Source: Proteromonas lacertae (Eukaryota). Taken from it: a stretch of 64,000 nucleotides of DNA. Shown in pieces: positions 11,701 to 63,525 of this stretch. The stretch spans positions 124,001 to 188,000 of the forward strand of contig NGBS01000882.1 in the NCBI GenBank assembly GCA_002245135.1. Direction: 5' to 3'. How positions within the stretch are numbered: position 1 is the first letter of the stretch; each line of letters begins with the position of its first letter. The notes under the pieces are model-generated. The model was not told where the DNA came from. It saw nothing but the letters and a program-made list of their open reading frames with translations, and did no database searches. The position numbers were made by a program, and so were the translations under genes.

Positions 11701-14700
11701 CAATAATACGTGGAGTAATTATGGTAAAGTATTTGCTGAAATGATATTTTTTAGACTAAAACACCTAACTGATCTTGAAATATGGTGTTATCATAATAAG
11801 ACAAATATTGATGGAATAATATATTCACATGATTTAGAAATAGATAACTAGTGGAAGTAGTAATACTGATCTTACATTGACAATAACAGAAAAAACAGGT
11901 CAAAGTAAATTATTAGATGGAGATAAATGTTATATAATGGCAAAATTAGATGCAAATACAATTAAGTAAATATACACCAACTACTGCTGATAAAAATGAT
12001 AATACTGGTTGTGAAATATGTAATGAATTTGTTATAGATGACTGATAGAAAGATATGGTTAAAGAAACCAAAAGATTTATCATGTGAAGTAGTAAAAATG
12101 CTACTAACTGATAATTCTGAGAAATATAATATGACATTTGGAGCAACATTAACAAGACTTATGATAAATCATTATATTGATACTAAAGAATTAAAAATAC
12201 CAAGTGGTTGTACAGGTGTCTGACAGTAGTACAGCTTATGAAAAAATTCGTAAAAGTGCAAATATGACGATTGAAATATTTGGATATGAATGTGACACAT
12301 TTAAAGATAAAGATGATCATATGATTTATATAAGAAAATATGTAGATAATAATAATAATATAACTGTGATGTTTAGAAATGAAATAGACTTTTCACCTTT
12401 AGAGTTTAGAAAACTATTTGATACAGAAGGAGATACAAAAACAATAATGTCAATTATTTTAAAACCAGCTCCTTTTATTGACGTAATAGAAAGTAATAAT
12501 GGATTGAAGATATATAAAGTTCCTTACAATTATGGATTTCAAAATGATGGTACTGTAATAGGAGGAAATTTCACTATAACAAGTCATTCAGAAGATAATA
12601 CACAAACCAGTACTTTCAAGTGTTAAAGGTACTTACTGGGGCTTTAATTATTCCAAAGTTTTTACATATTTAAGTTTTGAAGATCCTGGAAATAATAAAA
12701 AAATATGTAATGATCCATATGCAAGTGGTTGTACAGGTGGTTATTATCCATTAGATTTTAATTATACATATAATTCTTCATCAAATAAAACAGATTTATC
12801 TGATTATAAATGGAATATAGTTGAAAAGAATACTACAAATGGAAAAGATGGTAATCATACAATTGAATTAATTGGTTTTTATGAAATATTTAATTCAATA
12901 ACAGGATATACAGGAAGTGATAAAAGTGGAATACCAATAGCCTGTTATCATCCCAATAAAAATGTTGATAGTTTATTATATTTATATGACAGTACAATAA
13001 AAGAGATGATAAAAATAGAAATAGTATATTAATAGATATAACAATGAATGCTGATGGAAAACCTGATAATTTAACTGCAGGTGATTTATGTTTTATATTG
13101 TGGAAAAAGGATTTGTCAATTATTGATATTAATTCTTCTCCTATTAAAACATCTGGTGGAACAGATGATGCAGCTGTTGCTGCAAGTGGATGTGATAAAT
13201 GTGTTAATTTCTACTATAATGCAGATAGAGATCAATGGTATTATAGTAATCCAGATAATAGTATGAAATGTAGAATAAAGAAAATACTTAGATCCCATCA
13301 ATTGATAATTCAAAACACGATAGAGAATATGATATGGAGTTAGGTGCATCTTTAACAAGAATCTTAATTAACAATTATTTGTTTAAAAATGGTGTAGGTA
13401 CATATGGTAATAAGAGTGCTGAAGTTGGAAGATTAGAAATACCAAAGCATTGTACTGATGAAGATACTACCTCTACAACACTTTATAGTGATTTAAATGA
13501 GATGATTAGAAAGAGTGCTAATGTGAGTATTACATTGAAAGGATATGGAAAGGATTTATTTAAAGATGATAAATCTCATATTATTTGGTCTAAAATGGAT
13601 AATAAATATATATCATTCATTAAAGAGTTTGATTTGTTTAATGTATCTTATGATAAAATGAAAGGATTATCAGATTCAGAAAATAGTCTTACAATGACAA
13701 TACATGTAACTCCAGCTCCAATAATCAAATTAATTGATTATGGTGATTATAAAATATATGAGATTCCAAGAGTATATGATTTTAGTAATAATGGAAGTAT
13801 AAGAAGTAATTTGACTGCTGATTCTGTTAAGAGTGAAGATCCATCAGATTGTAGTTTTCAAGATAAAAATGCATATTTCTGGGGTTATAATAGTAGTAAA
13901 ATGATTAGTTATATAAGTTTTGAAAGTTACAAAGATGAAACTGATGCAATTAAAGAAGGTGAAATTTGTTTAGATCCTTATAATTGTGGTGGCAAATATT
14001 ATCCATTAGATTTTAATTACACTGTAAATAAAGGATCAGAAAGAGTAGATTTTACTGATTATAAATATATACATATACCTAAAGTTAAAAATGATCCTAC
14101 AGATGCTACTAAAACTGTAATTACCTTACCAGGATATGGAACAATATTCAAATCAATAGGATTCTTTGGAACATTTTCATCATCACCACAATCAAGAAAA
14201 AATATTCCCATAGCATTCTATCATCCTGAAAAGAATAGAGAAAGTTTATTATATATTTATAATTCTACTATTACAACAGTATTAAATTCTACTCAATCAC
14301 TATCTAATGCTGTACAAATAGAGGATTTGGTTATAACAATTACTCCTAATTCTTCTCCACATAATAATCATATAGCTGCAGGTGATATAGGTTTTATAAT
14401 GGCAAAGAAAGATGGTAGTGTTATTAATTTAAATAATAATAAACTATCAGGAGGTCAAGATAATCTATTAGTGAATAGCACAACAAAAGTTTGTGATCAA
14501 TGTGTTAATTTCTATTATAATACTTATAGAGATCAATGGTTTTATAGTAATCCAACTAATTTCACAGTAATAGATGCTGGAATGAAATGCACCGTTCAAG
14601 CAATAGAAAAAGGAATAACTGATGATACAAAATACGTTTATAATGTGACAATGGATTCAACATTTTCTAGATTAATAATAAATCATTACTTACAATATAA

Positions 14701-17700
14701 AGAATTAGAAATTCCATATTCAAATTGTACTGATTTAACAGAAAAAGGTACTTATTCAAATGGTTCAATTATAAATATGTTAGACACAGTTCGTAAAAGT
14801 GGAACAGTTAATATATCAATAAGTGGATACGAATCTGATAAATTTAAAGATACTTTAAGTCATATGATTTATGATGTAAAAAATGATACACATTATAACC
14901 AAAGTATATTAATAGTAAAATTAAGAGAAGAATTGTTATTTGAAAAAGTTAGATTCAGATTATTAGATGATAATATATATAGTGATGATAATAAACTAAA
15001 AATGTCAATATTAATAAGTCCAGCTCCAAAACTAGTTCCTATATATAGTAATAATGGATTAAAAGTGTATAGAGTTCCATTGAATTATACAATACTTAAG
15101 AATGATGCAAATAAATACATAATCAAAGCCAATTTAACCTGTACAAGTAATACAACAGATAGAATGAATAATATAAATACAACAAAGACAATAGATGGTG
15201 TCTATTGGGGATATAAAGCTGATGATGACATTCATAAAGTAATTAGTTATATAAGTTACAATGAGACATTATGTGATGATCCTTATGGTACAAAAAATGA
15301 TCAAATAGTGAATTGTCGAAATAAATATGCTTATGATTTTGATTGTAAAATGAAAGACGATATGACAAGAGTTGATTTAACTGATTATAAAGAAATCAAA
15401 CTATCAAGTCAGAATGTTACTAACAAGAAATTTACTTGGGTTGGATTTGGTGAAATATTATATAATAATGGATGGACAACAAATAATGATGCCACTACAG
15501 AATTTGAATTTCGATGTTATCATGGAGATAAGACTGATGAATATTATAGTAATTTAACATATTATAAAGCCAAAGTATCATTTAGTAATGCAGACTATAT
15601 AACTCCAAATATTATAAACTTCACTCCAAAAGATGTTAATATAACAATTGATGATACATTAAATCCAAAAACCTTACAAGAAGGAGATATTTGTTTCTTA
15701 TTATCTACAAGAGAAGGTAAGGCAATAGAATTAGTTACAAAGAATCCTGTAAAACCTTCATCACCTAGTGGAGTAGATGATTGTGATGCTTGTAATGTAT
15801 TTTATTATGATACAATCCGAGATGAATATTATATAAAAGAAATATATCTTCATCGAATTCAAAGTAATTATACCGAATTCCCACAAGGTGTTTATACGAA
15901 TAATACAATTATATTTAGTTATGGAATAATAGATGGAGTATTATCTAATTATTACGAATATTCATATTATAACTTATTAAAACCAACCAATAAATCTTCA
16001 ATTCCTGAATTACGAAAAGTAATAAAACCCACAAATATAATCGAATTATCATTAAGTCGACCAGATCCAACTGATTTGAAGAAACGAAAAGTGTATTATA
16101 AAGAAATCACTCAAATCTTATCAGTGGAAGAAAAAGACGAAATGTTTAATATTTCATCATATCCACCATTTTTACCATTACAAAAGATGTTTAATGAAGT
16201 TAAAAAATTGCCAAATGATACAGAAACAAATTTTGATTATAGTGTAGCAATTATAATAACACATGTTGTGTTACCAAACAGTGATTGTAATTATGAAACA
16301 AAAATATGTAAACATTATTTATTGAATCTTAATTTACCAATTGAAGGTGGAAATGTAGTAATTAGTAAAGATAATGAAGTAATTGGATCAGGAAATGTAT
16401 TGTCTTATAAGAGTATATATCCACAAGTATGTTATATTCAATACAAATTTAACGATGAAGAAAAATATGATGGTGAAAAGTTCTATAAGGCATTTAATTA
16501 TACAGAATATGATTATAAGATCAGTTCAACTCGAAATGATTTATCACTTTATACTGAATCAAAAGTAATAGATGTAACAGATGATTCAGGTAATCCTACT
16601 AAGACTACAATCCAGTGGAATAATTATGGTAAATCAATCGAATTAATGGGTTTAATTGATAATAAAGAAATCTCAATGTTATGTTATACACCTCCTCAAA
16701 CACAAATATCAGAAGATATTGAAGCAATCGAATATAAAGCAACAATTACCTTATATAAAGAAGATATTCGATTTGAATTTAATAGTAATAAACCTTCAGT
16801 GGGTGATGTCTGCTTTTTAACTGTTAATGGAAAAGGTGAAAAAATGACAGTAAAAGATATGGAAGCTTCTACATTCTTCGTTGAAAAAGATGGAAAAGTA
16901 TATTATAAATATGTTGGAGAAGATAATGTAACTGTTACTACAACCACAACTACCACTATAACTAATGAAGTGAATGTAACAGTAACGAATGAAGTAATAA
17001 CAGCTGGTGGAAATATCTTTAAACAAATGCAAGAGATATATAATGATGATGATGAAGAAATACAGCCAGATACACCAACTCAACCACCAGATAATAAATT
17101 TTCACTTAATTTTGCTGTTCCATTACCACAAGATGAAAAGAAAGAATTAGTAATATCCAAAATAGAAATAGATAAATGGATGAAAGTGCAAATCTATAAA
17201 GGAACAGTAAAACAGTTAGAAAGTACAGTAAAAATCACCACTATTGTAAGAACAATAGATCATTTTGTGATAGTAAAGATAGCTCCTGAAATTAACTTGA
17301 ATTTAGAAGATAATCGAATGAGAAGAAGATCAAGAAGAAGAAGAAGAAGAATTTTAGCTGATGATAATTATATTGTAATAATAACACTTGATATAGAATC
17401 TCCATCACTTAGTACTGATCAAATATTAATACCATATAATGGTGAATTAAATTTAAATAAAGAAGGTGGATTATTGTTTTGTACTAACTTAAATAATGGT
17501 GAGAAAGGATTGTTAGATGTAACTAGTTATTATAAATATAATGATCAACAGATGATGTATGTAAAATTTGATTTTAAAGTAGCAAGTGATCCAACTACAT
17601 TATCCTGTCAAGTTGCATTTAAACGAAATGATTTATCATTATACACCAGTTCAATTGTAGAAGAATTTAATAAAACTTATAGTGATGGTAGAAGTGATAC

Positions 17701-19027
17701 ACATCATTTCAAAGTTGTTTGGAAAGGATATGGTAAGGCATTTCAAGAGTTAATAAATCCACTTCTTTTACCTAGAACAGATTTGCAGGAATTGAAAATG
17801 CTATGTTTTCATCCAAATGGAGGTGATGATGATGCAAATGATTATAAATTACGTCAGTTTTATACTCAAATTGCTAGTATAAGTAGTGATTTGGAGATTC
17901 ATTTTTATGAAGGTGAAAATGGCGATCTAATGCAAGCAAAAGATGCAGATAATACTAATGATCATACTCGAAATAGTGATGGAAGTTTAAGAGTTGGAGA
18001 TATTTGTTATCCAATGAATAAAATAATTACTGATGATGAACAGAATGGATATACAAGTAGAATTCAGTATATTGAAGACGTAAGTCAACTTGATGCTGCT
18101 AAATATTTTGAATATAAAAAAGATGATGATGATAGTGATAATGGAGAATGGTATTATAAGACAGTAGATACTTCTAATGAAACAGAATCAACAATAACAT
18201 CTGAAGGACCACAAATTATGTATAATAAAGATAAGTCTGAAGAAGTATTAGATCAATACAACAAAACGAAAGAGATTTTAGTTATAATATCTGATGATGA
18301 AGCTGGTGGTGTATTTAAAATGAAAATATCAAATGGAATGATACTTGAAATATATATAAAAGGTACAAAGGGAGGAGTAGAAGGATATGAAAAACGATTT
18401 ATTGGTCAAATTGCAAGTATTAGAAGTGGAACTAAAGAAAATGAATTATTAATAACAACAATTGAAGATTTCTCAGATTTTCCAACAAACACAACAAATA
18501 GAAGAATATTAAAAGAAAATGAAGTAAGAGGAAGAATGATGGCAAATAATGTAATTAGTAATATTGCTGTAGCAATAACATTAAGAGAGAATTTAGTAAG
18601 CTCAAAATTAGCAGAATGTAGTGGTAATGGTTTTTGTGATAGAAAAACAGGAAAATGTGAATGTTATAATGGATTTACAGGAATAGCCTGCCAAAGATTA
18701 GATTGTCCAAATAATTGTAATAAACGTGGAAGATGTGTTCCTCTGAAAGAATTATTATCTGGAAATGGCTTAGAAGGATATGAAGGTTTTGAAACTAAAG
18801 ATGATAGTGTATTTGGTTGTTTATGTGATAAAGGATATCGTGGATATGATTGTAGTTTGATTGAATGTCCATCTGGTGAAGATTATATGGAAGGAAGTAA
18901 TATGGATGAAGAAGATGAACAAAGAGATTGTAGTGGAAGAGGTATTTGTGATTATACAACTGGTACTTGTGAATGTTTTAGTGGATTTAGTGGTGAAGGA
19001 TGTCAATATTATCAGATTTTAGGTTGA
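8780..19027 (+). CDS. Giant secreted EGF-like protein of stramenopile mastigoneme (Sig/Ocm) type with ~8 internal repeats; many frameshifts at 9.5-13.3 kb
   Basis: Signal peptide, then CPNDCSGNGQC...GYTGADCSE(intron)VCPVG. C-terminal ECSGNGFCDRKTGKCEC...CPNNCNKRGRC...CDKGYRGYDCSLIECPSGED...RDCSGRGICDYTTGTCECFSGFSGEGCQ. The same repeat motifs run across all ORF fragments. Confidence 0.75.
9400..18160 (+). repeat. About 8 diverged tandem coding repeats of ~1.1-1.3 kb
   Basis: C/F-Y-H motif recurs near 9646, 10720, 11783, 12942, 14215, 15513, 16681 and 17802, each followed by GD.C(Y/F). Near-identical DNA at ~10393 and ~11481 (ggatatga.ggaacaacatatagttatattagttt.gataa). Confidence 0.85.
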
Positions 19028-48300: not shown

Positions 48301-48917
48301 TGTTGTACTCCGTTGAGCTAATTGTGCCGTTGAGTGTTAAGAAGACTTTTTTCAATTCTAATATCATAAACGTAACCTCTGGCCCTTCAATATTACTAAT
48401 CAACGCTTTGTTTTCCAAAATAGTTACGTTGGCCTAATATCGTATATTCGTGTTTAGGTTCCTGTTCTGGAAACACTTTTTATTTTTATATTATTTTAAA
48501 AGCTTATAATAATAGTAGACATCGAGATAAAGGTTTTAAATAGAAAAGGAATACCTACTAATTGCATTTACCTGTTTAAAATTTATTTTTAAAAAACCGG
48601 CTTGAATGAGGCTTGAATAGATTTTTTATTCTTTCGTTTTTAAGTGTCTTAACATCTAAATATGTGTGATTTAATTGCTTAAACTAATGTATTTTTAACT
48701 CTAGTAGTGATTGAAGCAAAAAAATAAAAACTAAAATTATAATTGTTTTCAATATGTTGGGATAAAGTTCAAAATAATATATATCGCAGATGCAGCTTAT
48801 ATGACAAAGTAAGATTATATTTGCATATAACTCGCCATCAAACCACACACTATCATTTTAGAATTGAAAAAAGTCTTCTTAACGCTCAACGGCGCATTTA
48901 GCTCAACGGCGCATAAC
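48301..48917. mobile_element. Non-autonomous TIR element A (~620 bp, ~60-bp TIRs); right tip interrupted by element B
   Basis: Left tgttgtactccgttgagc...aagaagacttttttcaattcta is the imperfect reverse complement of tagaattgaaaaaagtcttcttaacgctcaacggc...cataac at 48859-48917; no TSD found. Confidence 0.75.
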
Positions 48918-49539
48918 TGTTGTTCCCCGTATGGCGGAAATCCCCGTATGGCGGAACTCTATATTGCAGAATGATTCAATCAAAACTAATATGATATTCA
49001 TGATGTTCGGAGTTAGTTATTAACAAATATATAGTTAGTTTGTCATATGACCTACATCTGTGATATACTTATTTATGAACTTCATTATTATCAATATTAA
49101 ACTAATTTTTGTATATTTTCTATTATAATGTATCAGTCACTACTACAGTCTAAAATACATTATCTGATATAAATAGAATTCACTATTTTTAATGTTAAGG
49201 AGGTTAAAAAAGAAAAAAGAAAAAATAAGTTCAAGCCTCGCTCAAGCCTGCTCTTTAATTTCCTTTTTTACTACCTTAACATTAAAATTATTGTATTCTA
49301 TTCATATCAGATAATGTATTTTAGACTGTAGTAGTGACTGATACATTAAAATAGAAAATATACAAAAATTAGTTTAATATTGATAATAATGAAGTTCATA
49401 AATAAGTATATCACAGATGTAGGTCATATGACAAACTAACTATATATTTGTTAATAACTAACTCCGAACATGATGAATATCATAATAGTTTTGATTGAAT
49501 CATTCTGCAAAATAGATTTCCGCCATACGGGGAACAACA
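48918..49539. mobile_element. Foldback MITE B (622 bp, ~275-bp TIRs, TGT...ACA ends, 6-bp TSD CATAAC)
   Basis: Starts tgttgttccccgtatggcggaa and ends ttccgccatacggggaacaaca; arms nearly identical; CATAAC at 48912-48917 and 49540-49545. Confidence 0.93.
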
Positions 49540-49704
49540 CATAACAACATATAATAAACAAACACCATTTCAATATATGATATTAATTTCATTAATTATT
49601 ATATTATAATTATCAATCTTCTTCATCCACATCTACTACGTCAAGCTTGTTATGTTTTAAAAGCATAATTAGCTGCTTTTTTTCGTATTCTTTTTTTTCT
49701 CTTT

Positions 49705-50117
49705 TGTTGTTCCCAGTATGGCGGAACTCTATATTGCAGAATTATTTAATCAAAACTAATATGATATTCATGATGTTCGGAGTTAGTTATTAACAAACAT
49801 ATAGTTAGTTTGTCATATGACCTACATCTATTATATACTTATTTATGAACTTCAATATCATCAATATTAAACTAATTTTCTTATATTTTCTATTTTAATG
49901 TATCAGTCACTACTACAGTCTAAAATACATTATCTAATATGAATAGAATACATTATTTTTAGTACCAGCTTTTTTATTTCTTTTTTACAGAAACTGTTAC
50001 TAAATTTATTGTAATATATTCATATTAGATAATAATGTATTTTAGACTGTAGTAGTGACTGATATATTAAAATAGAAAATATAAGAAAATTAGTTTAATA
50101 TAGATAATAATGAAGTT
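49705..50117. mobile_element. Second copy of the MITE B family, right arm truncated
   Basis: Starts tgttgttcccagtatggcggaactctatattgc (direct copy of the B left arm); inverted arm ~50010-50117 stops abruptly where a new tgttgt begins at 50118. Confidence 0.85.
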
Positions 50118-50460: not shown

Positions 50461-52739
50461 GAATTGCAGCAGAAACTTTGAAGAATGTTATAAAATTCTA
50501 TCAAGATAAGAAGATATTTCAAAAAAGAAAAATCAAGCTTGTCAAACTTGACAGTTTTTTTTTAATTTCAGAAAATCAAAATGTAAGCACTATATATATA
50601 TATATATATTATTATTATTATTATTATTATCAAAATATTTACTTTATATTATTTATAAACTGTATAATACTATCATGTACAGCGAAAGGTATAGAAGCAT
50701 CACTATTCTATGAAGATAAAGTAGATGTAATTGATTTTGGTGATAAATTTATTAACAGATAAGCTGAAAGCGCATTTTAATAGAAAATCGAGGTTTAAGA
50801 AGTCAAAGATTAACTAGGCCCAATTATAGAGTAGAAAAAATAATATATCAAATATACAGCAGAATAGTGTTGATTTAGACTTTAGGAGAAAAAATGTATT
50901 AATTAGAAGAAAAAAAGCTCAAGCTCAAGATTTAGATATTGGTTGAAGTATCACTTACCAATGAAGGATCAATTAAACCAAATGTAATAATTACTCCACC
51001 AAGGTGAATTAGATATAGAAGAAAGTGTAACAATCAAAGTATCTTATACAAGTTCAACTCTTGGTGAATTTAGTGATCATTTTGAATTTGCATTAAAAGG
51101 AGCAACTAATAATGTGGTATTAACAATAAAAGGACATGTAGTTGGTCCAACATTCTTCTTTAATAAGAATAAACTAGATTTTGGTATTGTAAGTTATGCA
51201 TTTTTAAACTCATCTGATTTGATATTAAGAAATACTTCCTCTGTTACATTTATATTCAATTTGCTAGTTTCTCAAGATGGTAATTACTTAAACAAAGAAT
51301 TCGAAATAATTCAAGCAGTAGCAACAGTATTACCAGAAGGAGAAGAGAAAATCAAAATCAATTTCATATCTCAAACAATAAAAGTATATGATTATTGTTT
51401 AGCAATTGATATTGAAAGTGTAGGTGAAGCTTTATTAACAATTCCAATAAGTGCTGAATGTCGAGTAGCTGAAGTAGAATTATTAGAAGAATCATTGAAA
51501 TATGGAGATTGTTATTTAAGATATACTTATTATCGAACTTTAACATTAAAGAATAAATCCAATTTAAGTGCTCAATTTGAAAACAGAACAAGATGAAAGA
51601 AGTAAATCGATTGGTAGTTATTTCCCTGATCCAGCTAAAGGTGTAATTGGACCAATGGCAACTCAAATGATTAAAGTTTAATTAAATCCTGAGAAATTAG
51701 GTGATATGAGAATTCCATTATATATTCAAATAATTGGCAGTCAATATCCTCCATTGGTATTAGTATTAGAAGCAAATGGACTTGGACCAGTGATAAAATC
51801 TACTTTAAATCATATAAAATTTGGTGATATAACTTGTTTAGATACTCATACAAAAGAATTTACAATAACTAATCCAACTTCAATTCCAGCTTTTTATAAA
51901 TTAGATTTTGAACGAGGATTTTATTTTAATACTGATATAGTTGATGGTATATTACAAAGTAAAGAATCTCAAAAGATAGTAGTTAGTTGTATGTTGGAAG
52001 ATGTATCAGCTTATAAAGATACAATATACATAGCAGCAACTGAAGGAGATAGTGCAATTCTTCCAGTTACAGCTAAATGTATAATAACAACAATATTTTG
52101 AGAAGATCCAGTAGATGTAATTGATTTTGGTGATCAATTCACAAACAGAACAATCGAAAGAGTATTTTTATTAGAAAATCGAGGTTTAAGAAGTCAAAGA
52201 TTAACTAGGATAAATCAAACTGCAGCAGAAAAAGAAAAATCTTTTAAAGCCAATAAATTAAAGATGGAAAGTGAAATGAATTCAAACCTTATGAAGTTAC
52301 ATTTACAATAACTCCCAATGTAATCGAATTAAAACCCAATACTGCTTGAAGTTTTGTAACATCTGGAAGTTGTGAAAAACCCTGTGAAATGATGAAAATG
52401 TTTTCTTGTTTGAGGAAATTTGATGGAGAAATAAGAAATAATGAAGCAAAAGAAACCGAAGTAAAAGTGATCTTTATGAATCCATTAATTCAATGTTCTG
52501 AAGAGAAAATCGAAGTTCAAAGTAAGACAGTTGTATTTAAGAATATATCAACATTGAGTTTAGATGTGATAATAAGTATAGCAGCTCCATTATTATTGAG
52601 TATGAATGAATTCCATTTAGAACCAAATGAATCAATGAATGTGACAGTGGAATTTGATCCAAATTATAAAGATGATAAAATCTCATGTAAAATAAATGGA
52701 ATATTGAATTTAAGATATGAAGATCATAATAATGAATAT
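50461..52739 (+). pseudogene. HYDIN: Decayed internal fragment of HYDIN (axonemal central-pair protein)
   Basis: LTIKGHVVGPTFFFNKNKLDFGIVSYAF...RNTSSV...QDG...KEFEI and further ASH/Ig-like repeats (IKFGDI.CL, IDFGD, VEFDP.YKDD); in-frame TAA/TGA stops (~51679, ~52100, ~52347) plus frameshifts; no start or end of the gene. Confidence 0.75.
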
Positions 52740-52841
52740 TAGGGTGAAATAGAACACTGTTCCATTTCACCCTATGTGTTTTTGATCCAAAAAAATAGCC
52801 GTTTCAATGTGTTCTATTTCACCCTATGGTTTTTTCACCCT
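52740..52841. repeat. Junction palindrome with iterated TTTCACCCT motif
   Basis: tagggtgaaat-a-gaaca-c-tgttc-c-atttcacccta (52740-52774), another gtgttctatttcacccta at ~52809-52826 and tttcaccct at ~52833-52841. Confidence 0.85.
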
Positions 52842-53202
52842 TAGAAACATAATTAGACAATAATAAATACATCAATCGATTTCTTTATTTATGCTGGGCT
52901 CATATATGCCCTTAGTTTGACTTTCTGATCATAATCGAAATCTAATTTTCTTAAAAAATTCAAAAACAATAATAGATAGGATGGCCACCATACTGTGTGA
53001 TATGACAACATGTGGTGACCATCCTATGTAATAAAAAACAAAACAAAAAAATGGAGTTCAAGTCAAATCTCGAAACGCATCTATTTTTCAATTATTGAAA
53101 TTTCTTATAAGACTTGCTATAATGCTAATTAATTATGTAAATTATGAAAACAACACTCCCACAGAAACACAATCTATCATTTGAACTAATTAGGACCAGA
53201 GA

Positions 53203-54166: not shown

Positions 54167-55453
54167 ATGTTTAGCACTAATAGTTACGATCCACATTTAT
54201 ACAGCTCATATAGCAACCAAAACCCATATCCTGTCAAACCGTTACCTACAAATGGTAACTTATCACTTGCAACATATATTAACCATGGAGCACCGAATAT
54301 TACACATCCAACAAGAGAGGCTTCGTATGAAGACCAAATGTCAAACCAAATTGCCCAATATCGATCACGCTTAGATGAGCTATATAAAAAATATTATTAC
54401 CTCAATGAAAATGAATTTGTCAAAATGACACAACATTTGTCTAGTATGAATGACATAGCTCCACCACCAGATGTAGTACGTGAATACTTAAGGAGACAAC
54501 CTGGAAAACAAATTGTTGATTTCAAATATAAAAAAAATAATCCATTTGCAACTATCAAAAAGCCAGGGTACTTCCAAATGGATATAGTGTTTTTCTTACC
54601 TGATATGGAACATTTGTATTTTATCGAAATGAATTCAAGAAAAGTATGGGCAATATTTATGCCTAATAAATATGGTGATATTACATTGGATGCATTTCAG
54701 AAGTGGTATTATGAAACAGATGCTTATGGAAACAAAACACATAAAAATGTGGTAAGTATCCTATCAGATGCTGATGCTAGTTTTTCAAATATCAAGAAGT
54801 TATGTGATGCTGAAGGAATATCATATTTTCAAAAAGATAGTTCAGAGCATAAAATAGAGTCATTATTGGATAGATCAGTGAGTGTGTTAAAAAGATTGTT
54901 GTACAAACACTTGGTGGATCTGGGATATGATGCACCTACATATATGGCAGATATTGATCACAATGATAAGCATATTATACCAGATATGAATTATAAATTA
55001 AAACTCGATAGTATAATACAGGAAGTGATAGATGACTATAACAACAAGCCATTACCAGGAATTAAAGGATATACCCCAAATGAGGTATTCCATAGTCCAG
55101 AATTACAAAAACAAATATTACAAAAATCAATTAACTACAACTTAAAGAATTATGAAAAATTGGATCATACTGGTCAAAATTTCGAAGTAGGTGATTTGGT
55201 GAGATTCAAAGAGAGAAGACGTAAAATGGATAAGAACATATACTGGTCAGACAATGTATATAAGATAATCAAGAAAAATCGATATTCATACAATTTAGGT
55301 GATATCAATGGGAATGACATTCAAGGTTTTTCATTAATTCGATTCAAACACTATGAGTTGCAGTTAGTGAGAAAAGATGATGCACCAACCACATGGTTTA
55401 GAAAAATACTGGAGAGACCCAAGAGAAAGAAGGGAGACAAATCAATATTGTAA
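54167..55453 (+). CDS. Polinton/Maverick-type retroviral-like (rve) integrase
   Basis: GYFQMDIVF (D), ILSDADASF (D), LLDRSVSVLKRLL (third acid), YNNKP...GYTPNEV, and the C-terminal FEVGDLVR...WSDNVYKI...YNL.DING..I...FKHYELQLV module. Confidence 0.9.
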   Translation: MFSTNSYDPHLYSSYSNQNPYPVKPLPTNGNLSLATYINHGAPNITHPTREASYEDQMSNQIAQYRSRLDELYKKYYYLNENEFVKMTQHLSSMNDIAPPPDVVREYLRRQPGKQIVDFKYKKNNPFATIKKPGYFQMDIVFFLPDMEHLYFIEMNSRKVWAIFMPNKYGDITLDAFQKWYYETDAYGNKTHKNVVSILSDADASFSNIKKLCDAEGISYFQKDSSEHKIESLLDRSVSVLKRLLYKHLVDLGYDAPTYMADIDHNDKHIIPDMNYKLKLDSIIQEVIDDYNNKPLPGIKGYTPNEVFHSPELQKQILQKSINYNLKNYEKLDHTGQNFEVGDLVRFKERRRKMDKNIYWSDNVYKIIKKNRYSYNLGDINGNDIQGFSLIRFKHYELQLVRKDDAPTTWFRKILERPKRKKGDKSIL

Positions 55454-55504
55454 CGAATAAATTTTTATTATGCTATATATTGTATATGTTGTTTTATTAT
55501 TATT

Positions 55505-55694
55505 GGGCATTGGATAGACTAGCTACGATGAGGGCTGCGTTTCTAATTTATAATTATTTATTTATTTATTAAATTAATTTCACAAGGAATTTATGGAAGT
55601 TTAATAATTTCTACTTGGATGTGTTGTTTAATATTGCGCCATTGAAATTCGGCTTGAATCATCCTGGCACGGTATATCTAAATGCCCTTTTTTT
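55505..55694 (+). ncRNA. Putative Pol III small RNA 1 (~185 nt, VA-RNA-like), viral
   Basis: GGGCATT/AATGCCC terminal stem extended by GCTA/TGGC, GATGA/TCATC and GGCTG/CGGCT pairings; ends in T7; no internal TTTT. Confidence 0.6.
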
Positions 55695-55701
55695 ATTTAA
55701 T

Positions 55702-55795
55702 TGGGATCTGATAGACTGTGCAAGGAAAAAAGAGTCATGCAGCTGGCATTAGTGGTTCGATTCCTAGCACAGACTATTAGTAATCCCATTTTTTT
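55702..55795 (+). ncRNA. Putative Pol III small RNA 2 (~90 nt, VA/vault-like hairpin), viral
   Basis: Stems TGGGAT/ATCCCA, CTGATAG/CTATTAG, CTGTGC/GCACAG, AGGAA/TTCCT; consensus B box GGTTCGATTCC at 55754-55764; ends in T7. Confidence 0.75.
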
Positions 55796-55854
55796 AATTT
55801 CTTTTTTTAAATATTTTATTATACATATACATATAGTATATTCTATTTTTATAT

Positions 55855-56265
55855 ATGCTTACACTACCACCACAGATTGAATATAAATTACCAGAACTTG
55901 AATCCAAGGTAACAAAGAAATATCATTTAAGTGGTCCAGACATATACTTGGATTTGTATAGCCTACAATTCCTTATATTTTTTTATCATCGAAAACCTAT
56001 ATATCAATGGTATTTTGAGTTAACACACAAAATGATTAACATGATCATGAGTCAACGTTTGATATTAGTGTTTGTAGGTCCTTGTGACTTAGGAAATAGA
56101 GATTATCCGAAAGTTACATATACACCAACAATGAAAAAAGTAATCATTAGAATGCCACAAAGATGTTTTAATGGTAAGATGCCAATATTCTTCAAATGTA
56201 CTCATATGGATACAGAGATGATAAATATATTGAAACTCATACAATATTTCACCACACATAAATAA
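55855..56265 (+). CDS. Viral hypothetical protein (136 aa)
   Basis: Intact ATG-TAA ORF flanked by AT-rich spacers. Confidence 0.6.
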   Translation: MLTLPPQIEYKLPELESKVTKKYHLSGPDIYLDLYSLQFLIFFYHRKPIYQWYFELTHKMINMIMSQRLILVFVGPCDLGNRDYPKVTYTPTMKKVIIRMPQRCFNGKMPIFFKCTHMDTEMINILKLIQYFTTHK

Positions 56266-56296
56266 AAAAAATAATTAAGTAATAATTATATATATA

Positions 56297-56800
56297 TTAT
56301 ATTAATCCAAATTGTTTTTTCATTAACCTAATTTTTGCTTCACCCACTATTGTATTATAGTCAGTAGCCTTTTTGAAACTACACTGATCTCTTAAAATAT
56401 TTTTCAAAAAATTAATAGCAAAAAAACCACAGTTGGCAGTATTTGAATTTTGGATTCTGTACTCCATTGATTTTAAGTTCATACTTTTCATTATGATACT
56501 TCTTTAATTTTTTCAAATTTTTTTTAAATTCTTCCAAGTGTTGAGGATCTTCACCAAATGAATCATAGTACAGGAATTGCTTTCTTGATATTGTCAACTA
56601 CTAAAGCAACCCAATGACCTATAGAATCAGGGCTAGCTTGTGTGGTGAGTGTATTGATTATGATTCCCCATTGATTCTTCTTTTTGGGTATAGGAAGTAC
56701 AAGCTCGTCCCAGCAGAACACTCCCATGAACTTTCCATGGAAATTATTGAACTCATTTTTCACAATTAACTCTATATCAAAATTCGATAAGGCATCTGAA
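56297..56800 (-). CDS. Adenain-like (clan CE) cysteine maturation protease domain; two indels
   Basis: LSNFDIE...FMGVFCWDEL...IIINT...GHWVAL (His), YYDSFG (Asp), IQNSNTANCGFFAINFL (Gln, Cys) across three frames. Confidence 0.88.
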
Positions 56801-59383
56801 GTGATACTGTTATACAAAACTTTCCTACGTGAAATTAATTTCTTTACTTTTTTATTATTTCCATTACCTATTCCAAAGTAACTCATAGCTTCACTGAGTT
56901 GTTTTGCTTGATCTAAATTACTCACTGCTCTACCAAAATTAGTGAGTGAACTTGGAATTGTTTGCTGTGAACGTTTCACGTAGTTATCCATTTTGATTGC
57001 ATTCTTGTGTTGATATGGTGTTGGTTTTAACCAGTTTAATAAACCACCTGCATCTAGCAAACCAAAACAAGCAGTCAATGCACTGAATACTGTTCCTATA
57101 CCTGCAACAGTTTGTAATGTACCTGTTGGATCAGCTGCAACAGCAGTTTTTGCCATTGATGGCATAGCTTTTGATAATTCACTGATACCTTTAACTGCTG
57201 CTGCAGCAGTTGTTGCATCACCTCCATTTGCAGCTGCAGCTACAGTTGCTGCTGTTTTTAATGTATCACCTACATTTTTTGCATCTATATTTCCAATATT
57301 AGAAAATTTGTAGAAGAATGGAACTAATTGAAATAAGTATCGAACATATGGATGAGTATTGAACATAAATGAAACACCAAAGTTATACAACAAGTCTACA
57401 GGTAACCATGATTTTTGAATTGCTTCAGGTAACATTGACTTAACTTTTTCTGAATTACCATAATACAAATCAGTGATAGCAGGTAATCTACCACCTGACA
57501 GCATACGAATTATTTCATAGTAGTCGAAAATGAAGTACCACATTACATACAAGAACCCTGATGTTGGTAGTTTAGATTTTTTCCATAACCAATAAGCCTA
57601 AACATGTCATTACTATTGCACGAACATATTTCATTGCATGATCTACTTCAAACATTTGAGGAGTAACTCCACCTACCAAATATGACTTCATTGTATAGTA
57701 TATTTGTGGAAATATCCTAAATACATTCTCTACACACAGGAACAAATTACCAGCAAAACCCATAAAATCAGATTCACGTAATGAATCAAGTGCTTTTTGA
57801 AATTGTGAATTTTCAAATTGTGCCCATGAACTACAAGCAGTTTTCACTAAACCAATAGCTATTTCATATTTTTGTTTATTATCTGCATTCACCCACTCTT
57901 GAGGAAGTGAGTGACCTAACTTCTCTCTGTTATAATCAAAGTTAATGAAATCTCTACTATTCTGTGATGCTATTTCATTCAGTTCTCTATATTTATCTTC
58001 ATTAATTAATGTACACTGTCCTTCACCCATATCTATAGCACTATTCATCAGTTCTTGATTTTTTGGATCTAATGCCCATCTATAAAATTTTGATCTTTCT
58101 AATATCTCTGGATCATCCATATATCTTTGTGCCTTTTGATTATTCAATGCAATATATTCTTTTACTTTTTCAGCTCGATTCGGATCAAAATTATATGGAT
58201 CTGAATATTGATTGATCTTACTTACTCCATCAACTAATTCATTTTGCAAATACTCCTGCTGTAGTAATAGTTTGTTATAATATTCTATTGCATCTTTATC
58301 ATTACCTGTTAATTTATCCCAAGTTGAGGTCAACCAATCTTGTCTATAATTTTTATAGGCTGCTAATTGAGGATTCTTTTCTATAATCTCTTGTAATGAT
58401 TTATAATTTTGTAATTTAGGAAATTTTTGTAACAAAGGATCTGTAACTCTATTCATTCCATTATCATATGCCTGAACATCTGCTTCTGTAACATATTCAG
58501 GCCAATTCAAAAGATAGCTTCTTGGATTAGATGTATCTAATGTTGCTAATGGGAATGTTCCTCTTAAATGTCCTTTTTTATGTTCACGATCTAGCATATC
58601 ATAAAAATTAATATGATAATTGTTAGGCAACAAAGAAGCATAATTATTAGTTAAAGCATATTGAACTTCTTTTCGAGCTTGTCTATTCAAACCTGGACTA
58701 AATAATTTATCATAATTCCAATTATAATCATATCCTACAGTTTCTTTTGGTATATATGGTTGAATATATTCTGGTATTTGACTTGGCTGTAATTGTGATG
58801 TTCCATTATAAGCAGCACTAGCAGCATCATACATTTGTTGTCTTGGATTAGTAATAATGACATGCTCATTAGGACCAACACTTTGACCCACTCTTAATGG
58901 TATAATACCACTATTACCACCTAATTTCTTAGTAGCCAAGAGATGCCTCCGTGGGATACTCTCTAATTTTAGTTTATTTCTTCTGTGATGTTTCTTATGT
59001 TTGAAATGAACATGTTTTCTTCTACCTGAACCTGTCTTTGGATATCCATCTAAAGACATACCAAATAAACCATAATTTACTTTTGGCCATAAATGATATT
59101 CACTACCCATACCATTAATTAAATTACACACATCTGATCGTGCTTCTGGAACACTACGACCACATTGATATTTGAAATAATGTAAGTAATCTGCCAATTG
59201 ATCTATTGTTCCACCATAGCTGGAATACTTTGATATAATATCTAATGGCAATCCTACATTTTTACATACATTTTCTAAATCTTGTTTTGTATTATTCATA
59301 ACCATTTGCTTAACTGATTCATAATCATATTGATTAATCAAAAATGGTTGTAATTTTTCCATAATAGCATCTACATTATATCT

Positions 59384-59425
<42 letters not shown>

Positions 59426-60802
59426 GTTGTTGTATTGGTTGTGTGTTATTTTGCAATGTTGGCTGGGCTGCTGCCGCCGTGGCGGCAGCAGCACCTGCCA
59501 TCATTCCGGCGTAACTTGCAGCATTTGAACTTTGATTATTATAACCTGCCCCAGTTGCAGGTATTGAAGTTGTATTATTAGAACTGGCCCAGTTGTAGTA
59601 CTATTAGTTGTATTATTATAACTGGGAGCAGTTGTAACATTCGATGCTTGAATATTTGAAGTAGCCGGCGCACTCGTCGAATTTGTTGTTGTAGGAGTAG
59701 CACCAAATATACCTCTGAACCAATTGTATATATTACTTAGTGATGTAGTAAAGAAACCCATTATACTATCTAACTTAGAATGAATCCATTGTGACATATC
59801 CATTGGAGGAACTTGTTTCCAACGATTATATACCAAACTGACAAAATTAGGAGTTAACATTGACACAAAAGATGCTGCATTAACCCATGCTGGGGATAAA
59901 CCAAATATCCATTGCATAACACCACTATATCCTATTCCTGCATTTACTAAATACTTTAATATTGCACCAACTGTACTATCAGGAAATAGTATATCAAACA
60001 CTTGTGAAATAGAACCTAATGTCATAGTACATAAGCAGAACTTCACACCAAATTTCAACCAATCGTATGTTGTATTACCTGAGAAATATTTATCAATTTT
60101 TGAAATTAATGACTCTTTTTCTCTTTCTTCCATTGTTGCTATCTTTCTCTGATATTCTTCATTCCTTGCTTTCACTATTTCATTTTCTTGTTGTAATTCA
60201 TACTCGTGATCTTTTTGTGTTGTACCAGCATTATTATTCCATCTTGGATTGGATTGATATGAATTTACATTGTACTGTGATCCCCATTGTTGTAATGGCT
60301 GTCCTTCAATTTGAGATAAAAATGGATTTTGCCATTGATATGTTAAATTCTCTGGTTGAGCATAATAATCTGAGTATGGCTTGTTATACTTACCTATGTT
60401 CCTATAATATCGTCCAAACTGATCTGTGATGCCTGACATATATAATTTGTATTTCATCTCATCAGTCATGAAATTGTTTTTTGTTGCGTTTATATTTGGA
60501 TTAACAGGCTTTGATAATTCCTCTATATCATCCTCATCTCCTATAGTATCATAAAATTTATTGAAACTAGATTTAGGATCATAGATGTCTAATCCATATG
60601 TACCATTGCCTTTGTCAACAATGGCTGTTGGGTTAGCCATGTGACTGAGATCTAGTTTTATTTTTTTGTTATCTTTCACCTTGTTGTAGATGATCTTTTT
60701 CAATTTTCTCTTAAGTGCATTATGATACACAGAGGGATTCTCAAAATCAATTGCTTCTTCTTTTGGTGATGATTGTTGCTTATGCTTTCGTTTAACACCC
60801 AT
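56297..60802 (-). CDS. Probable ~1,500-aa viral polyprotein ending in the protease
   Basis: ORFs of 433, 640 and 329 aa and the protease pieces join with single-base corrections (~59588, ~59424, ~57575, ~56580, ~56459); no AT-rich intergenic spacers between them. Confidence 0.55.
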
Positions 60803-62669: not shown

Positions 62670-62962
62670 TTACATTCGAGCCACCTTTGATTTTAAATAT
62701 GCATTCAATAATGCTTGTTGATTACTACCACCTCCATTGAATGGTAATCTACCTCTTCCTGACCTACGTCTTCTACGACCAAATCCCATTGTTGATAATC
62801 CATCTGCGATATCATTCTTTCCAAATTCCCTAGCTATTTTGGATGTTATTTTATGATCCTTTCCCAGTTAAATGCTTTGGAACCCCAATTTTTTAACTTA
62901 CCCCAGAAAGAACCACCCCTTCTTCCATAAACGCATCTACGTCTTCTACCACCTTTTGGCAT
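62670..62962 (-). CDS. Small Arg-rich core-like viral protein; indels, missed by ORF track
   Basis: MPKGGRRRR...GGSFWGKLK...DHKITSKIAREFGKNDIADGLSTMGFGRRRRRSGRGRLPF...KVARM-stop. Confidence 0.65.
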
Positions 62963-63021
62963 TATGTTATTTCGAATGAAAATAAAGAAATACGATTAAA
63001 ATAGAAAAAAATAAAATTAGA

Positions 63022-63525
63022 CTAGAAAACTCTAATCTTATTGTCAATATATCGATTATCGAGACTATTACTACTTTTACGTCTTTTACCAGAACCAGTC
63101 TTTTTCTTTGCTAACAAAAATTTCGGTATAGTACTTGGACCACCTTTCGTCCAATTCTTTACAGCAAATGGATTAGCCATTCCACCATTTTTTAAATAGG
63201 GCATGCTGCCTGGACCACCAGTAATTACATTTTTTAATTCCTTTGGTACTCTATTGACACCTAATTTTTTAATTTTATTCCAAAAAGAACCACCACTTAT
63301 ACCACCATCATAATTCCATTCTGCTTGCCCACCTCTTCTTCTACGTTTTCTACCATATCCTACATTGGATACAACATTACCTAAGGCTGGACCTACACCT
63401 GGGATTAAACTAGCTGCTGTTGATAAAATTTTTGTTTTCTTAAAGAAATTCTTTACTCCATCCCAGAACTTGCCTTTACCTATGATATACTTACGATATT
63501 TCGCTTTTGAACTTCTTTTAACCAT
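63022..63525 (-). CDS. Basic core / membrane-lytic-like viral protein with Gly-x-Gly motifs
   Basis: GKGKFWDGVKNFFKKTKILSTAASLIPGVG...VGYGRKRRRRGG...GGSFWNKIKKLG...GSGKRRK. Confidence 0.7.
   Translation of the reverse strand: MVKRSSKAKYRKYIIGKGKFWDGVKNFFKKTKILSTAASLIPGVGPALGNVVSNVGYGRKRRRRGGQAEWNYDGGISGGSFWNKIKKLGVNRVPKELKNVITGGPGSMPYLKNGGMANPFAVKNWTKGGPSTIPKFLLAKKKTGSGKRRKSSNSLDNRYIDNKIRVF

Follow-up and report, generated by a model that had tools for sequence, protein, structure and literature searches.

A candidate tandem pair of structured Pol III RNA genes beside a retroviral-type integrase gene in a likely Polinton/MELD-like element

The DNA analysed here, a 64,000-nt stretch of a Proteromonas lacertae contig (the window), contains two rod-like folds in tandem, unit 1 and unit 2, downstream of a retroviral-type integrase gene (Table 1). 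The fold-back of unit 1 is a real, non-random structure of RNA type. Our main reading, held with about even confidence, is that the two units are tandem paralogous genes for Pol III RNAs in a virus-like element and that their rod RNAs would act against the RNA defences of the host, as double-stranded decoys or Dicer substrates. It draws on the perfect B box of unit 2, the shared arms, the T7 ends and the adjoining integrase gene. Judged from the sequence, a designed pair of Pol III genes is probable, and for continued transcription of unit 1 in the present copy the balance is roughly level.

Table 1. Coordinates of unit 1, unit 2 and neighbouring features, counted from the first nucleotide of the window
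Feature	Position	Strand	Remarks
Likely left end of the element	52740..53030	.	short inverted and direct repeats, hairpin with 30-bp arms, directly after HYDIN-like exons
Retroviral-type (rve) integrase ORF, 433 aa	54152..55453	+	Pfam rve matches of relatives, fold match
Likely mRNA 3'-end signals	55456..55495	+	AATAAA two bases past the integrase stop, TGTTG-T4 tract 33 bases past; putative function
TATATAT	55474..55480	+	-31 from the first G of unit 1; weak, the window having 3.2 TATATA per kb
Unit 1, predicted 190-nt RNA	55505..55694	+	end-to-end rod enclosing an AU-rich core and closing with T7
5' arm of the unit 1 rod	55505..55543	+	begins GGG; contains GATAGACT at 55513
A-box candidate TAGACTAGCTACG	55515..55527	+	+11 of unit 1; 7/8 on the long consensus form
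AU-rich core of unit 1	55544..55643	+	AUUUA pentamers at 55546, 55556, 55560, 55564 and 55589
3' arm of the unit 1 rod	55644..55687	+	55662-55678 identical to unit 2 55762-55778 at 12 of 17 positions
Degenerate B-box-like motif GGCTTGAATC	55651..55660	+	GAA bulged between two helices; placed as in unit 2
T7 of unit 1, candidate Pol III terminator	55688..55694	+	directly abuts the closing stem
Unit 2, predicted 93-nt rod hairpin	55703..55795	+	z -5.94; T7 at 55789-55795
Consensus B box GGTTCGATTCC	55754..55764	+	+52 of unit 2; 60 bp past the unit 1 terminator
Broken cysteine-protease-like gene	56300..56850	-	three reading frames; motifs HW, YYDS and Q..NC

Structure of unit 1 and its resemblance to unit 2

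The initial annotation had named four nested pairings, all of which are present: GGGCATT at 55505 with AATGCCC at 55681, GCTA at 55522 with TGGC at 55665, GATGA at 55527 with TCATC at 55659, and GGCTG at 55533 with CGGCT at 55650. They are part of a longer rod in which the 5' arm pairs with the 3' arm through 35 outer pairs (14 G-C and 7 G·U), most of them with a pair probability of at least 0.9. When compared with shuffled sequence, as the annotation had proposed, the plus strand folded as RNA came out clearly better: its MFE was -49.5 kcal/mol with a z-score of -4.05, equalled by none of 200 shuffles. None of 1284 GC-matched 190-nt grid windows reached this energy, a control that favours unit 1, as its ends were optimised and those of the grid windows were not; in the grid, the window at 55495 clips the closing stem and scores only -39.2. 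A composition-corrected scan of 4254 windows placed no plus-strand window of unit 1 among its top 25. The rod still forms in longer folds. Among 160 T4-free stretches closing in T5 or longer, a 6-bp closing stem was found only in unit 1 and at one weak minus-strand site, with a filter that overlooked unit 2 and is therefore not a sensitive test.

The rod encloses the T-rich stretch described earlier, at about 100 nt and not the roughly 110 nt first given. In isolation this core folds like shuffled sequence (z -0.19, 82/200), which counts against the main reading, and the one local hairpin predicted in it with confidence is at 55594-55613. Splicing of a GT..AG intron out of the core was considered and rejected, as it yields only a 9-codon ORF. 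As the annotation had stated, the core lacks TTTT: there are ten TTT runs and no TTTT from 55505 up to the T7. A TTTT-free body is expected by chance in 0.5% of dinucleotide and 4.5% of mononucleotide shuffles, and a per-run model gives 0.7-3.6%. In the window itself, 417 of 4432 T-matched windows (9.4%) are free of TTTT, as are 19 (1.0%) of the 1904 windows that contain ten T-runs or more, three of these 19 being unit 1 itself. The avoidance of TTTT is real but modest (0.5-9%, depending on the control) and, for boundaries that were chosen after the fact, is suggestive and not decisive. The absence of TTTT on which selection for Pol III read-through had been proposed is accordingly present, and the selection itself would rest on a 1-9% statistic from one sequence. 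A T4-free body followed by an oligo-T end, as in type 2 Pol III genes, is found in unit 1.

Unit 2 begins 8 nt 3' of the unit 1 T7. Both units start with GGG and carry GATAGACT at +8/+9, an octamer that occurs four times in the whole window. The alignment score of their 3' arms was reached by none of 5000 shuffles, and the ungapped identity shown in Table 1 is matched at 13 of 127,966 window positions, both units counted; in a listing of the first 40 of 54 matches, more than ten unrelated places in the window score as high as the 3' arms. The 5' arms are only weakly alike, their score being reached by 141 of 5000 shuffles and at 1937 background positions, which is a further point against the main reading. 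A pattern of the shared 3' arm matched twice in the window and never in shuffles, but it was derived from those two copies and the matches are not independent evidence. Apart from the arms themselves, nothing in the window matched either of them perfectly over more than 11 nt, a result that is neutral for a host-target model.

The two structures agree in more than sequence. In the helix formed by GATAGACT, seven of the eight positions are paired in each unit and in the same register. The 3' strand of this helix differs at four positions, of which two exchange a wobble for a Watson-Crick pair or the reverse, one makes a pair and one breaks a pair; no pair changed on both strands was seen in this comparison, and the main reading is weakened by that. 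Both units hold 24-25 pairs from their ends up to a bulge inside the B-box motif, and in both the terminal duplex is interrupted by wobbles and mismatches. Units 1 and 2 are thus likely to be paralogous, on the strength of two sequences, and unit 1 most likely represents the architecture of unit 2 with a 100-nt AU-rich domain replacing the apical hairpin.

Promoter signals and possible decay of unit 1

In a type 2 (tRNA-like) Pol III gene the A box lies 8-20 nt after the start. The A-box candidate of unit 1, at +11, is the better one of the two units; it scores 6/8 on both shorter, usual 11-12-nt forms of the consensus, and the A box of unit 2 is also weak (6/8). For comparison, the A box of the host tRNA scores 7/8 on the long form and 8/8 on two shorter forms. 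The B-box candidate at 55651 is degenerate, as first described: GGCTTGAATC departs from the consensus at two positions of its core, one of them the C of GTTC, and unit 1 does not contain the intact internal B box of a type 2 gene. The motif sits in the 3' arm, and the T-run follows it after 27 nt. Given the shared arms, the pairing register and the position of the bulge, GGCTTGAATC is most likely unit 1's own diverged B box. The B box of unit 2 is perfect, and its position equals the spacing in the window's own tRNA gene, a single tRNA-Met gene followed by T6.

The B box GGTTCGATTCC lies 239 bp downstream of the unit 1 A-box candidate, and the annotation had suggested that the two units might share it. 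Such layouts have precedents. Yeast SNR6 has a TATA box at -30, and 202 bp separate its A box from a B box outside the gene (PMC9136082, excerpt), and BLV pre-miRNA genes have a transcript-internal A box and a B box past the terminator (PMC12498455, excerpt). In comparison with both, the distance would be 239 bp here, the B box is internal to a second RNA gene, and its shared use is a proposal. The A-B spacing in BLV is 34-95 nt, far below that of unit 1, which speaks against the main reading; spacings up to about 365 bp are cited as tolerated (PMC12498455, excerpt). The reading of unit 1 as a Pol III transcript gains from its likeness to the B-box-bearing unit 2, from the A box at +11 and from the mRNA-end signals upstream, and is held back by a promoter that is partly degenerate, with no invariant C in the B box of unit 1 and, in either unit, a 6/8 A box on the usual consensus. 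From the sequence, two promoter readings fit: TFIIIC bridging to the B box of unit 2, or a decayed B box in unit 1.

If the latter holds in full, unit 1 would be a decayed, silent duplicate of unit 2 with a functionless AU-rich apical loop, and only unit 2 would be, or have last been, transcribed. The change of C to T in the B box is a CpG to TpG change, the usual product of deamination, and the observed/expected CpG ratio is as low as 0.35 in the host and 0.41 in the element. The neighbouring protease-like gene is broken, and the core, as shown above, folds like shuffles. The rod of 35 pairs, however, is intact and has high pair probabilities, and ten TTT runs free of TTTT would be improbable in neutral AT-rich DNA by the per-run model. 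The adjoining integrase ORF is open over 433 codons, and the CpG ratio of units 1 and 2 together (0.75) is above that of their surroundings. We consider a decayed duplicate unlikely.

The integrated element and other origins of the fold

With 21-34% GC per kb the window is AT-rich, and it looks eukaryotic, with ORFs of host type. HYDIN-like host exons reach 52742 and a dense ORF cluster starts at about 52740. This cluster likely represents an integrated, partly decayed Polinton/MELD-like element, the right end and target-site duplication of which lie outside the window. No Pfam match at the cut-off was obtained in the 11 element ORFs scanned. The protease-like gene matches Pfam Peptidase_C5 (adenovirus protease) at an E-value of 0.072, below the cut-off; no homologs of it were found, and the PDB matches of the protease piece are at chance level. 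The spread of this gene over three frames shows decay of the element, again a point against the main reading. An upstream ORF of low complexity also runs into this gene in the same frame, through either decay or an assembly error. Because no capsid, PolB or packaging ATPase gene was seen in the window, the class of the element is one that we infer. MELD viruses have been described from Blastocystis, rumen, algal and fungal data, and Polintons, adintoviruses and MELD viruses of protists resemble the element in combining an rve integrase with a midsize gene cluster (PMC8502044, excerpt).

The integrase has six close relatives of 42-56% identity, and 433 library proteins were matched at E-values up to 0.001. 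The six close relatives and ten further ones that were looked up are Logan proteins. Pfam rve was detected at E<0.01 in 14 of the 20 relatives scanned; the window's own ORF gave no Pfam match, and its profile found no PDB sequence match. A structure model of low confidence (pLDDT 52) matches retroviral integrases with an E-value of 1.6e-7, and it also matches the integrases of a MELD virus and of mavirus. The retroviral-type integrase expected of a Polinton or MELD virus is therefore present, as judged by the domains of relatives and the fold match.

At the left border, 50690-52742 (+) contains HYDIN-like Ig-domain exons (Pfam PF22544) with in-frame stops and frame changes. This looks like a decayed flagellar gene into which, or beside which, the element was inserted. 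AT-rich, flagellum-less lineages have been described (PMC12129017, excerpt). After the last HYDIN-like exon, 52740-52840 holds a palindrome with 17-bp arms and direct repeats of TTCACCCTATG, which allow two alternative folds. A third strong hairpin lies near the left end at 52973-53088 (+), with z-scores of -6.77 (+) and -4.61 (-); a B-box-like GAGTTCAAGTC at 53054 and T5 at about 53084 follow it, and it may represent either a further Pol III unit or a piece of the terminal repeat.

Unit 1 starts 52 nt past the integrase stop on the same strand, and it could accordingly belong to the 3' UTR of the integrase mRNA as a structured element, made by Pol II and controlling stability or translation through stem-held AU-rich elements. 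The five AUUUA pentamers and a second TGTTG tract in the core would suit this role, and the rod forms in the context of a longer transcript as well. We nevertheless rate it as quite unlikely. With AATAAA after the stop and a TGTTG tract at +33, the integrase mRNA likely ends upstream of unit 1; these signals would terminate it before 55505. TGTT(G/T) occurs at +33 to +47 after the stop in five of ten element ORFs (the integrase included) and in one of nine host ORFs, suggesting short 3' UTRs in the element, for a search interval that was set after seeing the data and for ORF ends some of which are not gene ends. A 3' UTR would also leave unexplained why unit 1 starts with GGG, why the T7 directly abuts the stem and why a B-box-bearing twin lies 8 nt downstream.

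Unit 1 is very unlikely to be a fold that arose by chance or an inverted repeat acting at the DNA level, be it a cruciform, an element for packaging or an origin, or a foldback insertion of old date. There are other strong palindromes in the window, at 49131-49347, 49862-50115 and 52973-53030, and the minus strand of unit 1 folded as RNA also beats shuffles (z -2.64, with 3 of 200 equally good). With DNA parameters, however, the z-score is only -1.12 and 30 of 200 shuffles do equally well. In a wobble-blind alignment of the arms of unit 1 the mismatches are six G-T and no A-C; in the same alignment, four other palindromes nearby gave three G-T and four A-C when pooled, and unit 2 gave one of each. 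The earlier claim that the G-U pairs point to structure at the RNA level is thus supported for the plus strand, both by these mismatches and by the difference between the RNA and DNA z-scores. Furthermore, the arms of unit 1 are far less perfect than those of the DNA palindromes, and the T7 and the B box are strand-specific. As to the palindromes themselves, 48900-50115 contains two that are long and near-perfect, 49131-49347 and 49862-50115, the first inside a larger inverted repeat, and they are apparently two related foldback or MITE-like copies.

That the units are a captured host non-coding RNA or a tRNA-derived SINE fragment unrelated to the life cycle of the element is highly improbable: unit 2 has a tRNA-like promoter spacing and tRNA genes are known in Polinton-like viruses (PMC12220804, excerpt), but no Rfam family matched unit 1 at the gathering score, ARAGORN called no tRNA at either unit, and no further copy of the pair exists within the window. 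Across 55300-56600, Rfam gave six weak matches far below threshold, none of them inside 55505-55694. The classes tRNA, vault RNA, Y RNA, snRNA, snoRNA and SRP RNA were set aside for want of an Rfam or ARAGORN match; hammerhead ribozyme, SRP RNA, U3 or C/D snoRNA and Sm-site RNA were dropped for want of their motifs.

Searches for related loci through the integrase or its alignments found none in viral contigs, metagenome contigs or prokaryote genomes. The ORF at 59501-60802 likewise led to no related locus, and no homologs were found for the ORFs at 56563-57552 and 57572-59494. A pattern joining GATAGACT to a B box matched at least 120 loci in viral contigs. Among those listed, 47 B boxes lie in ARAGORN tRNAs and 73 do not; among the matches listed, the folds of these 73 resemble T-arm hairpins and not end-to-end rods, and no relative of five element proteins was found at the pattern loci. 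The shared 3'-arm pattern matched eight loci, none with an upstream GATAGAC, a B box or a related protein, and blastn found no match among phages. The same survey brought up a recurrent phage element in IMG/VR (loci L002, L004, L010, L018-L020 and many others), which consists of a T-arm-like hairpin with a further hairpin upstream, is not called as a tRNA by ARAGORN and is unrelated to units 1 and 2.

Likeness to viral Pol III RNAs and possible role

Virus-made Pol III RNAs are described from a few animal viruses, as VA RNAs, EBERs, TMERs and BLV pre-miRNAs (PMC4378190, excerpt). The VA RNAs are Pol III transcripts of about 160 nt, encoded as a tandem duplicate, with wobble-rich stems; they are substrates of Dicer, which they load, they are able to overwhelm the miRNA pathway, and they also inhibit PKR (PMC4378190, PMC6599070, excerpts). 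Adenovirus VA RNAI and VA RNAII resemble units 1 and 2 in being a tandem duplicated pair of structured RNAs with wobble-containing paired ends. Unit 1 has the terminal stem with wobbles (7 G·U among its 35 pairs) and the U-rich 3' end (T7) of a VA RNA, and the tandem duplicate gene is found in unit 2, which shares both arms. The VA RNAs come from a midsize DNA virus, and the element has an integrase and the weakly adenain-like protease remnant. VA RNA has an Rfam model, but unit 1 did not match it at the gathering score or at E-values up to 10. Furthermore, neither tetramer of the GGGU/ACCC tetrastem of VA RNAs (PMC6599070, excerpt) is present in unit 1, and the B box of a VA RNA lies in the apical loop whereas the B-box-like motif of unit 1 lies in the 3' arm.

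The EBV RNAs EBER1 and EBER2 are likewise a tandem Pol III pair with paired ends and a U-rich 3' end, and EBER1 binds the AU-rich-element protein AUF1 (PMC4378190, excerpt). The EBERs, which belong to a human herpesvirus, have several stable stem-loops where the unit 1 core has one, and unit 1 gave no Rfam match to them. Compared with BLV, unit 1 is far longer than a pre-miRNA. An Rfam scan of 8300 Polinton-like virus and virophage genomes reported tRNAs, rRNAs, miRNAs, introns, histone stem-loops, snRNAs and snoRNAs, and the classes given in its main text include none that is VA-like (PMC12220804, excerpt). On this comparison the best reading would be that the pair is VA- or EBER-like in layout and not a member of either family; if expressed, it would function as viral Pol III RNA pairs do.

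In the proposed mechanism for the tandem Pol III genes, TFIIIC would be recruited through the A box of unit 1 together with either its own weak B box or that of unit 2, the latter used past the terminator as in yeast SNR6 and the BLV pre-miRNAs, and the TATA-like element at -31 may assist. Pol III would then initiate at G55505, pass through the TTTT-free core and stop at the T7. The terminal duplex of about 24 pairs, the length of a Dicer product, is the likely working part of both RNAs, and Dicer-like enzymes may bind or cut it, making the RNA a decoy or a source of small RNAs. Given transcription, we see such a role as about evenly balanced. The AU-rich core with its AUUUA pentamers could bind AU-rich-element proteins, like EBER1 with AUF1. 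To our knowledge PKR is an unlikely target in a protist, so RNA silencing would be the likely one; a literature search found no paper linking Blastocystis with Dicer and Argonaute.

A bolder and rather doubtful version is that a Polinton-like virus encodes duplicated Pol III RNAs which split one promoter between them and blunt the dsRNA defence, with unit 1 adding an AU-rich sponge. If this were true, counter-defence of the VA type would extend past vertebrate adenoviruses and PKR to protist relatives of that lineage. No report of VA- or EBER-like Pol III RNAs in Polintons or Polinton-like viruses was found in a search of journals free of subscription. If expressed, the pair would open to testing the way in which DNA viruses that integrate into protist genomes meet host RNA defence, would bear on whether VA-like RNAs predate PKR, and would be a natural example of one B box serving two adjoining genes across a terminator.

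Two other parts of the window contain ORFs of some interest. At 62760-63525 (-), small ORFs rich in Arg, Lys and Gly carry repeated GGSFW and GRRRR-type motifs and have, we assume, some resemblance to viral core proteins that contain protease sites. At 13334-19027 (+) lies an intron-free ORF of 1897 aa with C-terminal EGF repeats; it presumably resembles a mastigoneme-type protein of stramenopiles, which is odd beside a dead HYDIN gene.
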